Shown here: positions 3,364-23,649 of the stretch, in pieces
Numbering within the stretch: position 1 is the first letter of the stretch
Layout: every line of letters starts with the position of its first letter
Virus genome (UHGV): UHGV-0864142
Length of the DNA: 24,513 nucleotides
Direction: 5' to 3' (one strand)
From: a virus
Program-made: the position numbers and the translations under genes
The notes under the pieces: generated by a model
What the model saw: only the letters and a program-made list of their open reading frames with translations
Database searches by the model: none
What the model was told of the DNA's origin: nothing

Positions 3364-4617
3364 TTACTGCCCGGCAATAACGATGCCCGTATATTCAGGA
3401 ACCAGTACAGAGCAACCGTACAGAGTGGTGAAACGCGCAGTGGTTACGCCTTTGATGTGGTCGAAGGCGTAAGACATGATCAGCGTAGCGCCCTGCTCGG
3501 TGGTTGCCGTCATTACCTGTGGACCCTGACCAGTTGGGAACGCCAGTTTGCCGTACATCAGTTCAACAGAACCATCAGCCCAGAACAGGTTAGCCGGTGC
3601 GGCATTTTTGTTGAGAATGGTGATTGCTGCGCTACTTGCCGCATTAGCATCAACGTTTGCATATGGACGGCTGGCGACATCCGCGTTGTCAGGCGGCAGA
3701 ATTTTCGGGGAGATAGTTACTGTCGTTCCGCTAACTGCCAGAACGCGGAATACCTGCGGCTGCCCGGTGGTATCTTTGGTGATCTGGTGTACGGAATTCA
3801 CCCCTGCGATGGTAAACGCATCGCCAACCTGCAAGCCTTCAGCAGATACCGTAATGGTCCCCTGTCGGTTATCCACTGGCATATCGTTAGCATCTTTCGC
3901 TTCAACCTTGTGCGCAGGTGCTGCTGCCAGCGTAATGGAAGTTGCTGTACCCTTCGGAACACGACCAGAAATATCGGTCTTGTAGCTATCGAAGGACGCA
4001 ACCGGAGGGATCTGCGCTTTTTCGTATGCTGTCAGGGTTGCGCCCTGAGCATAGGCACGGTGACCAAGCTCGCCAGCAAGGTCTTTATAGTTGAAGGGGT
4101 TCCAGAAAGAGCGGCGGTTGATACCCTGTGGTACACCAATCGCCGTCATGGTGGCATCAATACCTGCCGCACAGTTCCACAAATCACGGCCCTGTGAACC
4201 AGTGGTTGAGTCAGCCATTGTGATCACGTTAGTAGCACGCTGCGTGACCATGGAAATCAGATCAGAGTCAATCTGTGCAGCAAGGCGCATACCTGCGGCG
4301 CGACCAGCTTCAGTTTTATGTTCCGGGTCACGCATTTCACGCGCATCCAGAGTGTACAGAATGTTTTTCGGCTCCTTGAACACTGAAGGAACAAGGCGCT
4401 GAACCAGTGCTGTTGGCGTTTTGCCGCTGAGATCGAGGCCTTCCTCAATGTTCATGTGGTAATGCTGCGGACGATACAGAACATCACCTGCTCGCTGCAT
4501 TGCTGTATCACCGGGACGGAATTTTTTAGCGTTACGGGAAACTACGCAGGCGGCCTCAAAGCCTTCAACGTAGTTTTCGAACATGATTTCAAGGTCTTTT
4601 GCTAATTGGTTAGCCAT
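3364..4617 (-). CDS. Major capsid (coat) protein, P22/Sf6-like (417 aa)
   Basis: Lies between the scaffold and gp4 homologs. Size fits P22-family coat. C-terminal region (NLFWADGSVELMYGK) resembles the P22 coat motif FWADDAIRIV as recalled. Confidence 0.85.
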   Translation of the reverse strand: MANQLAKDLEIMFENYVEGFEAACVVSRNAKKFRPGDTAMQRAGDVLYRPQHYHMNIEEGLDLSGKTPTALVQRLVPSVFKEPKNILYTLDAREMRDPEHKTEAGRAAGMRLAAQIDSDLISMVTQRATNVITMADSTTGSQGRDLWNCAAGIDATMTAIGVPQGINRRSFWNPFNYKDLAGELGHRAYAQGATLTAYEKAQIPPVASFDSYKTDISGRVPKGTATSITLAAAPAHKVEAKDANDMPVDNRQGTITVSAEGLQVGDAFTIAGVNSVHQITKDTTGQPQVFRVLAVSGTTVTISPKILPPDNADVASRPYANVDANAASSAAITILNKNAAPANLFWADGSVELMYGKLAFPTGQGPQVMTATTEQGATLIMSYAFDHIKGVTTARFTTLYGCSVLVPEYTGIVIAGQ

Positions 4618-12398: not shown

Positions 12399-12871
12399 AC
12401 CTCAATCTCTCTGACCGTTCCGCCTGCTTCTTTGAATTTTGCAATCAGGCTGTCAGCCTTATGCTCGAACTGACCATAACCAGCGCCCGGCAGTGAAGCC
12501 CAGATATTGCTGCAACGGTCGATAGCCTGACGAATATCACCGCGATCAATCATCGGTAAAGCGCCACGCTCTTTAATCTGCTGCAATGCCACTGCGTCCT
12601 GGCTTTTGGGAGAGAAGTCTTTCAGGCCAAGTTGCTTGCGGTAGGCATCCCACCAACGTGAAAGAAGCTGGTAACGTCCGGCGGCTGTTGATTTGAGCTT
12701 TGGGTTTAGCGTGACAAGTTTGCGAGGGTGATCGGAGTAATCAGTGAATAGCTCTCCGCCTACAATGACGTCATAACCATGATTTCTGGTTTTCTGCCGT
12801 CCGTTATCAGTTCCCTCCGACCACGCCAGCATATCGAGGAACGCCTTACGTTGATTATTGATTTCCACCAT
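12395..12871 (-). CDS. R: Endolysin R (lytic transglycosylase, 158 aa)
   Basis: Essentially identical to lambda R over its full length as recalled ([53 protein letters not shown]...). Confidence 0.97.
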
Positions 12872-21190: not shown

Positions 21191-21469
21191 TTAGGCCTCG
21201 AAGAATTCGCCGTTCTTCGGGGCTTTTTCTTTTGTCAGCATTCTGGCTACTTTCTTAGCCAGTTCCGCCAACTCCTCGTCTTCAACACCCCATTCAAGAA
21301 CAGCCAGAAGCATTCCCATTTTTGGGATGAAGCTGTCTTTCCATCGCGAAATTTGCGATTCATTAATCCCTAACGCGTCGGCAACCTTTCGCTGACCACG
21401 TACAGCAATTCGATTCAGGATGTTGCTTGTAATTGCATTCGCTTTCTTGCGAGTACTTGTAAGTTGCAT
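21191..21469 (-). CDS. cII: CII-like transcriptional activator (92 aa)
   Basis: Resembles lambda CII as recalled (ILNRIA..G..K.A...G...SQISRWK...IPK..MLLAVLEWGV.D...A.LA..VA). Confidence 0.85.
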   Translation of the reverse strand: MQLTSTRKKANAITSNILNRIAVRGQRKVADALGINESQISRWKDSFIPKMGMLLAVLEWGVEDEELAELAKKVARMLTKEKAPKNGEFFEA

Positions 21470-21525
21470 ATGTAAGTATTTCCTTAACTAATAAGAAGTT
21501 ATGCGCATCAACTTATGCGCGTTGT

Positions 21526-21571
21526 ATTCCCGCATTTCGGCGGGAATGAGGACCATGACTGTTAAAGAGCG
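21526..21571 (-). promoter_or_regulatory. nutR: boxA (CGCUCUUUAACA) and boxB hairpin (AUUCCCGC-CGAAAU-GCGGGAAU)
   Basis: boxA-like element 8 nt after the cro stop, with a hairpin 12 nt further. The same boxA/boxB pair occurs upstream of N (nutL). Confidence 0.65.
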
Positions 21572-21577
21572 GTGTTA

Positions 21578-21772
21578 CTATTTGTTTTTCTTGTTGCTTG
21601 GGAAAGGACGAACTTCCTCTCCAATCACACTGCCATCAGGCTTTACCGTAACCATGATGTTACGGCCTGCCAGAATGGCCTTGCTGATAGCGCACTGGAT
21701 TACACCAAAGTCACTGGCTGCTTTAGCCTGTCCATGGATTTTGGCGTAATCGGCAAGTGTCATTCGAATCAT
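21578..21772 (-). CDS. cro: Cro repressor (64 aa)
   Basis: Resembles lambda Cro as recalled (ITL.DYA...GQ.K.A.D.GV.Q.AI.KAI.AGR.I......DGSV..EEV.PFPSNKK). ATG 21772 with GGAGAG SD; the track start is a GTG two codons upstream. Confidence 0.85.
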
Positions 21773-21801
21773 ATGCACTCTCCGTTATTAACCATGAACA
21801 A

Positions 21802-21878: not shown

Positions 21879-22595
21879 ATGGAAAATAAAAAATCACTGA
21901 CGACAGAACAGCTCGAAGACGCTAAGCGGCTTAAGGCTTTGTATGAGTCAAAAAAGAAAGAATTGGGAATAACCCAATACTCAATCGCTGATGAACTGGG
22001 TATCACCCAAGGAGCGGTAGGGCATTATCTTAATGGCAGAAATGCGCTAAACGTTGAGGTTGCATCTGGTTTTGCACGATTATTGCAAGTCTCAATTGCT
22101 GATTTTAGCCAGTCAATTGCTGCCAAGGTTGCAGAACAGGCAGAAAGCCTTAAGAGCGATGCCAACGTAAGGTATGCAGGGGAATACAGAGCAGGAAAGA
22201 GGTATCCGGTGTTAAGCAGTATCCAGGCTGGCTCGTGGTGTGAAGCATGCGAACCATACACCATTAAAGACATAGATGTTTGGCTTGAGTCTGACGCGCA
22301 TATTCAAGGTAATGCGTTTTGGCTTAAAGTGGAAGGTGATTCAATGACGGCACCGGTTGGGTTAAGCATTCCAGAGGGAACATTCGTTCTTTTCGATACC
22401 GGAAGGGAGGCGATCAACGGCAGCTTGGTCATAGCAAAACTTTCTGACTCTAACGAAGCAACATTCAAGAAGCTGATAATCGACGGCGGAAATAAATACC
22501 TCAAGGGACTTAACCCTGCATGGCCTCTCGTGCCAATCAATGGAAACTGCAAGATTATAGGCGTTGCAATTGAGACAAAACTAAGGCTGGTTTGA
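21879..22595 (+). CDS. cI: CI-type prophage repressor (HTH plus LexA-like S24 autopeptidase domain), 238 aa
   Basis: Ends resemble lambda CI as recalled (KK.LT.EQLEDA.RLKA.YE.KK.ELG; FWL.VEG.SMTAP; FKKLI.D). Ala-Gly cleavage site (SIQAGSW), catalytic Ser in GDSM and Lys in FKKL. Recognition helix region differs, implying distinct immunity. Confidence 0.92.
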   Translation: MENKKSLTTEQLEDAKRLKALYESKKKELGITQYSIADELGITQGAVGHYLNGRNALNVEVASGFARLLQVSIADFSQSIAAKVAEQAESLKSDANVRYAGEYRAGKRYPVLSSIQAGSWCEACEPYTIKDIDVWLESDAHIQGNAFWLKVEGDSMTAPVGLSIPEGTFVLFDTGREAINGSLVIAKLSDSNEATFKKLIIDGGNKYLKGLNPAWPLVPINGNCKIIGVAIETKLRLV

Positions 22596-23068: not shown

Positions 23069-23155
23069 AATATCCTTTGTATTCATTTGCTTATCATTAT
23101 TTCACCAAAAATAAATACCTTGGGTATTTACACAATAAAATACCTACAGTATTCT
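23069..23155 (+). promoter_or_regulatory. Left operator region OL with promoter PL (-35 TTTACA 23127-23132, -10 TATTCT 23150-23155)
   Basis: Perfect AATAC-N5-GTATT sites at 23114-23128 and 23139-23153, same half-sites as OR. Weaker third site AATAT-N5-GTATT at 23069-23083. Promoter hexamers overlap the operators. Confidence 0.6.
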
Positions 23156-23200: not shown

Positions 23201-23242
23201 GGCTCTTTAACATTGATGGGATTGTCCCGCCGAAATGCGGGA
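23201..23242 (+). promoter_or_regulatory. nutL: boxA (GGCTCTTTAACA) and boxB hairpin (UCCCGC-CGAAAU-GCGGGA)
   Basis: Same boxA core and identical boxB loop/stem as nutR, with the same 12-nt boxA-boxB spacing. Lies between PL and N. Confidence 0.65.
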
Positions 23243-23349
23243 ACCAAAGAGTAGTTGGCTTTGGGGTGACGTGAAGTGCAGCTGCACGACGGCAACCGGA
23301 AGATAAGCACCCGGCGCGTCACCGCCAAAGTCAATCATCGGAGGTCAAC

Positions 23350-23649
23350 ATGACAGTAGTCATTACATATCTGGCTGACGATAACGCCAGAAATCGCCGC
23401 AGAGCACGCAGACAGGCTCAACGTGAACAGGCAATGCAAGAGCAGCGACTGGCGCGAAAAATTGCGCTAAAGCTCTCTGGTTGCGTCAGAGCAGACAAAG
23501 CAGCATCACTCGGAAGCCTTCGCTGCAAGAAGGCAGAAGAAGTCGAGCGTAAACAGAACCGTATTTACTACCGCAAGCCACGCAGTGAAATGGGGGTGAC
23601 TTGTGTTGGTCGCCAGAAAATGAAATTAGGCAGCAAACCACTTATTTGA
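23350..23649 (+). CDS. N: N-type transcription antiterminator (99 aa)
   Basis: Arg-rich N-terminal motif (NARNRRRARRQAQREQ). C-terminal ...RKQNRIYYRKPRSEMGVTCVGRQKMKLGSKPLI resembles the lambda N C-terminus (...RKNQRTWYSKPGERGITCSGRQKIKGKSIPLI) as recalled. GGAGG SD. Confidence 0.85.
   Translation: MTVVITYLADDNARNRRRARRQAQREQAMQEQRLARKIALKLSGCVRADKAASLGSLRCKKAEEVERKQNRIYYRKPRSEMGVTCVGRQKMKLGSKPLI

Follow-up and report, generated by a model that had tools for sequence, protein, structure and literature searches.

Putative nutL and nutR sites of the HK620 specificity type in a P22-like lambdoid phage or prophage

The immunity region and its two boxA-boxB sites

The window, i.e., the whole stretch of DNA that was analysed (24,513 nucleotides, UHGV virus genome UHGV-0864142), represents a phage or prophage of the P22-like kind, with HK620, CUS-3, phiv205-1 and Kapi1 among its relatives. 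Its open reading frame (ORF) map shows a standard lambdoid immunity region, with cI (21879-22595) and N (23350-23649) on the plus strand and cro, cII, an O-like gene and a gene for a DnaB-like helicase on the minus strand. This region is 98-99% identical to those of HK620, HK140, HK630, mEpX2 and others. The relevant features are:

21191-21469, minus strand: cII, which follows nutR and the tR1 region as the first downstream gene (ORF map and HK620 annotation)
21526..21547, minus strand: nutR boxB hairpin, AUUCCCGC-CGAAAU-GCGGGAAU, with an 8-bp stem and the loop at 21534-21539 (fold and compensatory changes in relatives)
21548..21559, minus strand: nutR spacer, GUCAUGGUCCUC, 12 nt when counted up to the full 8-bp stem, resembling the phage 21 nutR spacer GUUCUGGCCUU
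21560..21571, minus strand: nutR boxA in the PR transcript, CGCUCUUUAACA, identical to the start of nutR as annotated in HK620; its 8-mer equals phage 21 boxA-R
21578-21778, minus strand: cro, which directly precedes nutR in the PR operon (ORF map, HK620 and mEpX2 annotation)
23127-23155, plus strand: PL promoter-like site, TTTACA-17-TATTCT, which would transcribe nutL and N and coincides with the annotated HK620 pL
23201..23212, plus strand: nutL boxA in the PL transcript, GGCUCUUUAACA, identical to the annotated HK620 nutL
23213..23224, plus strand: nutL spacer, UUGAUGGGAUUG, 12 nt when counted up to the full 6-bp stem
23225..23242, plus strand: nutL boxB hairpin, UCCCGC-CGAAAU-GCGGGA, with a 6-bp stem and the loop at 23231-23236
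23350-23649, plus strand: N antiterminator gene, 99 amino acids, a mosaic of an HK620-type part (residues 1-33) and a phage 21 body (residues 34-99)
23377..23430, plus strand: N codons 10-27, arginine-rich motif (ARM) DDNARNRRRARRQAQREQ, the presumed boxB-binding helix, which aligns with the lambda N ARM

The nutR site begins 7 nt past the cro stop codon and lies ahead of cII, while nutL is located ca. 40 nt downstream of the PL-like promoter (compared with HK620 pL via a locus-to-window offset of 20346) and 108 nt upstream of N. Each site is in the sense orientation of its own early transcript, PR or PL. The placement proposed in the earlier note, with nutR after cro and nutL between PL and N, thus fits both the ORF map and the promoter-like site.

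The 24.5-kb window was searched with the pattern GCTCTTTAACA-N(8-20)-CCCGCCGAAATGCGGG. Exactly two matches were retrieved, at 21570..21529 on the minus strand and at 23202..23241 on the plus strand, and there was none in 100 dinucleotide-preserving shuffles, which bears out the claim that the same boxA core and an identical boxB are present at two sites. Read directly, nutR (minus strand, 21571..21526) is CGCTCTTTAACA-GTCATGGTCCTC-ATTCCCGC-CGAAAT-GCGGGAAT, and nutL (plus strand, 23201..23242) is GGCTCTTTAACA-TTGATGGGATTG-TCCCGC-CGAAAT-GCGGGA; the 19-mer TCCCGCCGAAATGCGGGAA is an identical block common to both. The boxA consensus CGCUCUU(U)A is found 5′ of both hairpins, as CGCTCTTTAACA in nutR and GGCTCTTTAACA in nutL, and the boxA 8-mer of the window is also that of the P22 nut sites and of the annotated phage 21 boxA. 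The "identical 12-nt spacing" reported earlier holds when distances are measured to the base of the full stems (8 bp in nutR, 6 bp in nutL), but not when they are measured to the CCCGC/GCGGG stem, which lies 15 nt from boxA in nutR and 13 nt in nutL. Two other boxA-like 8-mers, one at 12568-12575 (plus strand, antisense within a lysis-region ORF) and one at 22157-22150 (minus strand, within cI), are not followed by a hairpin and were rejected as chance matches. Across the whole window, Rfam gave no hits at gathering thresholds, and only chance-level hits were obtained around the sites at E up to 10.

Both intervals coincide exactly with annotated features of HK620 (AF335538), in agreement with their designation as nutR and nutL: the 46-nt "nutR; putative N-utilization rightward" is identical to the window at 46 of 46 positions (21526-21571), and the 42-nt "nutL; putative N-utilization leftward" at 42 of 42 (23201-23242). 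In HK620, the sites are placed likewise with respect to cro, cII, PL and N, in an immunity region that is 98.5% identical. The same nut sites are present in HK140, HK630, CUS-3, mEpX2, mEp213, IME10 and others, and the records of mEpX2, HK140 and HK630 annotate boxA parts. Since they are identical to the annotated HK620 nutR and nutL, the sites are already known at the annotation level (HK620, 2001; GenBank record).

The boxB hairpin and its loop

Folding of both sites, as suggested in the earlier note, gave at each of them a hairpin with the 6-nt loop CGAAAU. The energies of the 22-nt hairpins are −11.7 (nutR) and −10.5 kcal/mol (nutL), with z-scores of −3.3 and −3.8, respectively; since the folding model gives the hexaloop no internal structure, these energies say nothing about the GNRA/C.U model discussed below.

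When 15 distinct natural hairpins, a small and closely related sample, were aligned, 89% of the cells were paired, and compensatory double changes were present in four of the eight stem pairs (e.g., AUUCCCGC/GCGGGAAU to AUCUCCAC/GUGGAGAU). The paired fraction, the double-change cells and the covariation score were reached by none of 500 shuffles, two measures that count pairs or pair types did not rise above the 500 shuffles of these 15 hairpins, and slid registers of the alignment were all worse. These compensatory changes speak for the hairpin, in keeping with a lambdoid nut site, whose boxB is expected to be a conserved short stem-loop ca. 8-15 nt 3′ of boxA, alike at both sites. Hardly any variation is seen in the loop: only two natural variants occur among the sampled hairpins, a change of C1 to U and a change of GAAA to GUAA (L086), so that the consensus is Y-G-N-A-A-U on an invariant C-G closing pair.

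We compared the boxBs of the window with those of the three systems that have been studied structurally. Lambda (NC_001416; PDB 1QFQ, 6GOV) shares with the window the boxA-spacer-boxB architecture, GNRA-type loop chemistry, an N with ARM, NusA-binding and RNA polymerase-binding parts, and a homologous N C-terminus. It differs in having a weaker boxA variant, CGCUCUUA, a boxB pentaloop closed by U-A (GCCCU-GAAGA-AGGGC in nutL and GCCCU-GAAAA-AGGGC in nutR, as read from NC_001416) and an ARM with Trp18, where the window has Ala. What lambda N needs is a GNRNA pentaloop that adopts a GNRA fold by extruding one base, is closed by a U-A pair and has G at its first position (PMC12027372). Instead of a U-A-closed GNRNA pentaloop on a 5-bp GCCCU/AGGGC stem, the window has CGAAAU on CCCGC/GCGGG; the loop does differ from that of lambda, as had been noticed earlier.

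Phage 21 (OL657228; PDB 1NYB) has the same boxA GCUCUUUAACA, a homologous PL leader, homologous spacers and the N residues 34-99, but its boxBs (UCUCAAC-CUAACC-GUUGAGA and UCACCU-CUAACC-GGGUGA) and its ARM (GTAKSRYKARRAELIAERR) are unlike CCCGC-CGAAAU-GCGGG and DDNARNRRRARRQAQREQ of the window. In the CUAACC hexaloop, the core UAAC is GNRA-like, and the C residues on either side of it form a non-canonical pair (PDB 1NYB; PMC12550061). While phage 21 specificity is marked by CUAACC with a UMAC core and a C-C pair, together with an ARM of the form GTAKSRYKARR, the core in the window is GAAA and the ARM is another one; what the two boxBs share is the 6-nt loop length and a flanking pyrimidine pair. 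A boxB loop of 6 nt is not exceptional, since phage 21 also has one (CUAACC).

The ARM of the P22 gene 24 protein (NC_002371; PDB 1A4T) is of the same general type as that of the window (NAKTRRHERRR versus NARNRRRARRQ). In its own record, the P22 boxBs are GCGCU-GACAA-AGCGC (nutL) and CCGC-C-GACAA-C-GCGG (nutR). The upper stem of the latter is the same as in the window, a pyrimidine-pyrimidine pair flanks its loop, and without the looped-out C the core would read GAAA; CGAAAU equals the loop of P22 nutR once this C is taken away. In the P22 structure (PDB 1A4T), the C of GACAA is looped out (PMC12550061). This C of the 5-nt GACAA core is contacted by the peptide, whereas the 4-nt GAAA core of the window has no fifth nucleotide and nothing to loop out, and its 3′ flank is U rather than C, so that the GACAA pentaloop with a looped-out C that marks P22 specificity is absent. 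The comparison with phage 21 and P22 nut sites that had been proposed therefore yields two loops, CUAACC and GACAA, and that of the window differs from both.

By analogy with the phage 21 and P22 loops, the C-GAAA-U hexaloop most likely folds into a genuine GNRA tetraloop that stacks on a non-canonical C.U (pyrimidine-U) pair. One could instead read it as a phage 21-style or unstructured hexaloop, with the identity of the nut sites left as it is. The phage 21-like N body, the 6-nt loop of phage 21 itself and the weak sampling of GNRA conservation (two natural loop variants) speak for this option, which we nevertheless regard as rather unlikely: the sole inner-loop variant, GUAA, keeps GNRA, position 1 stays a pyrimidine, the ARM is nearer to those of lambda and P22 than to that of phage 21, and the phage 21 loop is itself GNRA-like on a non-canonical pyrimidine pair, so that both readings converge. 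It is hardly credible that the hairpins are intrinsic terminators or palindromic DNA sites of a DNA-binding protein rather than targets of N, even though the inverted repeats are G+C-rich and lie in regulatory intergenic DNA. Neither hairpin is followed by a U-run or called by the terminator scan, boxA precedes each at a fixed distance, and both copies have the same orientation to transcription, with the CGAAAU loop in both transcripts and the non-palindromic loop as the most conserved part. Furthermore, the U.G pairs GCGGGGAU of nutR variants in relatives (L085/L120) pair on the transcribed strand only, which, together with the fixed orientation of the loop, indicates an RNA element and not a DNA palindrome. 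Terminators and DNA palindromes were rejected on the grounds of the missing U-run, the fixed orientation and the transcript-only U.G pairs.

The N protein and its pairing with boxB

N residues 1-33, including the ARM DDNARNRRRARRQAQREQ, equal those of HK620 and mEpX2 N, and residues 34-99 are those of phage 21 N with three differences. With HK620 N, the identity extends over residues 1-56; after residue ca. 64, HK620 N has an H-19B-like tail (...CLPNVAIYAAGYRKSKQLTAR), whereas N of the window has a phage 21/lambda-type C-terminal half (...GVTCVGRQKMKLGSKPLI). In mEpX2, a P22-like body follows the same ARM. The last 38 residues of N (62-99) align to lambda N residues 74-110 of the antitermination complex in PDB 6GOV (E = 2.5e-4). 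The "lambda-like N C-terminus" of the earlier note is thus recovered, and can be given more precisely as the phage 21 N part, residues 34-99. N of the window gave no match to the lambda N36 Pfam model and a weak, below-cutoff match to PF25694 (N_peptide), a family that the HK620 and mEpX2 N relatives with the same ARM match at 1e-15 to 1e-16.

In a multiple alignment, the ARM aligns to the lambda core A-x-x-RRR-x-RR, with Ala at the position of lambda Trp18, and is closer to the lambda and P22 ARMs than to the phage 21 type. Among the 5.8 billion proteins searched, the N body was found with two N-terminal types only, that of phage 21 and that of HK620. N of the window is a recombinant whose junction lies directly after the ARM, as expected of a modular specificity domain. 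Free N proteins are disordered.

Aligned pairwise over the stretch that begins with PL and ends with N, the window and phage 21 show the following identities:

Leader, boxA and spacer: 90%
boxB (nutL): 44%, with conserved flanks
Downstream leader: 73%
N codons 1-33: 53%
N codons 34-99: 98% (nucleotide identity)

The two most diverged islands, boxB and N codons 1-33, are the two parts presumed to interact.

For comparison of ARMs with boxBs, ca. 190 related loci were retrieved. The boxB pair flanks 15 distinct immunity cassettes (175 loci), and four different N bodies carry an ARM of the HK620 type, one resembling that of phage 21/lambda, one that of H-19B, one that of P22 and one with the ending NPLGNKIHAVQRMKLSSKPLI. 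Nearly all loci that have an HK620 ARM and retain the site show CCGC-YGNAAU-GCGG at both nutL and nutR. The exception (L034, IMGVR_UViG_2731957842_000007) has an N gene (at 4001) that is 99% identical, yet unrelated DNA takes the place of PL and nutL, and no nutR was found within 4 kb; this locus is probably a rearranged or decayed prophage. Other ARMs come with other boxBs: phage 21 and two loci with the GTAKSRYKARR ARM (L091/L092) have CUAACC loops, and a locus with the lambda ARM (L164) has the boxB GCCCU-GAAGA-AGGGC. A further pair of loci (L118/L119), with the ARM DNSKNRYRARRAAKREQ (DNSKNRYRARR), has UUCCUCU-CUAGCA-GGAGGAA in the same nutL frame as the window and GCUCAUCU-CUAACA/CUAGCA-GGAUGAGC at nutR. 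In these two IMG/VR contigs, nutL lies ca. 150-250 nt upstream of N (4001), and the leader is otherwise near-identical to that of the window. Their ARM is intermediate between the HK620 and phage 21 types and, judging from sequence, resembles a natural halfway stage from one specificity to another.

A cognate N with an N-terminal ARM is therefore encoded beside nutL and co-varies with boxB, as expected of a lambdoid-phage nut site, and the window boxB shares neither its sequence nor its cognate ARM with any of the three pairs whose structures have been studied (lambda, P22 and phage 21). With a probability of about 0.9, we take the two sites to be nutL and nutR of a P22-like lambdoid E. coli phage or prophage of the HK620 specificity type; as part of this best explanation, the ARM-boxB pair appears to be inherited as a matched module unlike those of lambda, P22 and phage 21. 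The suggestion of the earlier note that N specificity is distinct from lambda finds strong backing at the level of comparison, in that the ARM is a non-lambda one and that ARM and boxB travel together.

Real nut sites whose specificity is not truly distinct, so that the window N and lambda (or P22) N recognise each other's boxBs, are conceivable because the loop has a GNRA core and the ARM is lambda/P22-like. The alignment with the A-x-x-RRR-x-RR core of lambda would agree with this, as would the observation that lambda N binding rests mainly on a GNRA-like fold, the loop G1 and the preceding pyrimidine (PMC12027372), and P22 nutR, CCGC-C-GACAA-C-GCGG, differs from the window boxB by the looped-out C and one flanking base only. 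We consider such cross-recognition quite improbable, however, since lambda requires a U-A-closed GNRNA pentaloop (PMC12027372), while the loop of the window is C.U-closed and has no fifth base, and since Ala and not Trp is present at the Trp18 equivalent. In addition, ARM type strictly matches boxB type in every locus examined, even within homologous nutL leaders, which is the pattern that purifying selection on a cognate pair would give.

Predicted function, distribution and flanking structures

With GCUCUUUAACA, the window has a boxA of the full rrn type, the sequence in E. coli rrn operons being UGCUCUUUAACAA. In the general mechanism of N-dependent antitermination, NusB-NusE attaches to boxA, N to boxB and NusA to the spacer (PMC3177189), and the affinity of NusB-NusE is ca. 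10-fold tighter for rrn boxA than for lambda boxA (PMC2800207). In the phage studied here, RNA polymerase coming from PL or PR would transcribe a nut site, the rrn-type boxA of the nascent RNA would be bound by host NusB-NusE(S10), and the boxB hairpin by the N-terminal arginine-rich helix of phage N (residues ca. 10-27). NusA would contact the spacer and N, and the middle and C-terminal parts of N, which are phage 21/lambda-like, would contact NusA and RNA polymerase and modify the latter. The modified elongation complex is then predicted to read through tR1 and downstream terminators, with specificity residing in the ARM-boxB pair.

The HK620-type boxB may represent a fourth mode of reading by an ARM, in which a GNRA loop (GAAA/GUAA) stacks on a conserved pyrimidine-U mismatch, no base is looped out and the ARM has no Trp18 equivalent; we put this forward tentatively, as somewhat short of an even chance. 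In lambda, the looped-out boxB base is needed for the NusA step, and a boxB without such a base could, if this mode is real, mean a different NusA requirement. The series from the HK620 type through the type with CUAGCA/CUAACA loops to the phage 21 type, all in one nutL frame, would then be a natural pathway of ARM/RNA co-evolution. No experiment on the HK620-type boxB/ARM pair, and no structure or binding study of the Y-GNRA-U boxB class, was found in the searchable literature. The value of the locus is modest: it is a clear-cut natural case of a specificity module with matched peptide and RNA, in which an 18-residue ARM and a hairpin of ca. 20 nt change jointly while the leader, boxA and the remainder of N stay. 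The Y-GNRA-U boxB could also supply an orthogonal N/boxB tethering pair.

The nutL-ARM module is present in 526 of 5426 complete E. coli genomes (ca. 10%) and in ca. 29 phage records. In HK140, CUS-3, IME10, Gally and several E. coli chromosomes (H43-H47, H53-H55, H70-H76), the nutL-to-N match comes in two or three pieces that span 340-715 bp instead of 256 bp, and thus these genomes carry an extra segment between nutL and N. The CUS-3 feature under the split match is labelled "bsq5; boundary sequence". N of some IMG/VR loci is lengthened by an ORF that lies upstream in the same frame (MTGCGNAKTNNHRH...).

Several further RNA structures are predicted next to the nut sites. Within the part of the PL leader that separates nutL from the ribosome-binding site of N, a near-perfect helix of ca. 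20 bp is formed by 23254-23273 and 23315-23335 (plus strand) and ends a few nt short of the GGAGG Shine-Dalgarno sequence; the fold of the whole leader has an energy of −69 kcal/mol (z = −2.5). The pairing is kept in phage 21 despite sequence changes, and the helix resembles the RNase III-sensitive N-leader hairpin of lambda. In the same fold, GCUCUU of the nutL boxA (23202-23207) pairs with AAGAGU (23247-23252) just 3′ of boxB, so that boxB tops a longer stem, and the same 3′ segment can alternatively form the hairpin CCAAAG-AGUAGUUGG-CUUUGG (23244-23264). The segment CCAAAGAG(N)AGUUGGCUUUGG is kept in the relatives examined, though not in phage 21. It is possible that the boxA-AAGAGU pairing and the CCAAAG/CUUUGG hairpin constitute an alternative NUT structure.

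On the nutR side, the hairpin GCGCAU-AAGUUG-AUGCGC (21503-21520, minus strand) starts 5 nt past boxB, in a region labelled tR1 in HK620. It lacks a U-run after the stem and is therefore no intrinsic terminator. One relative (L128) has another hairpin, ACGCAU-CAACCG-AUGCGU, in its place, and the two loci with the intermediate ARM (L118/L119) share the ACGCAUCAAC arm. A strong terminator-like hairpin with 14 bp followed by a T-run is located at 21193-21225 (plus strand), opposite cII and overlapping its 3′ end; since P22 annotates an oop terminator at the same position and in the same orientation, it is probably the terminator of the OOP antisense RNA.
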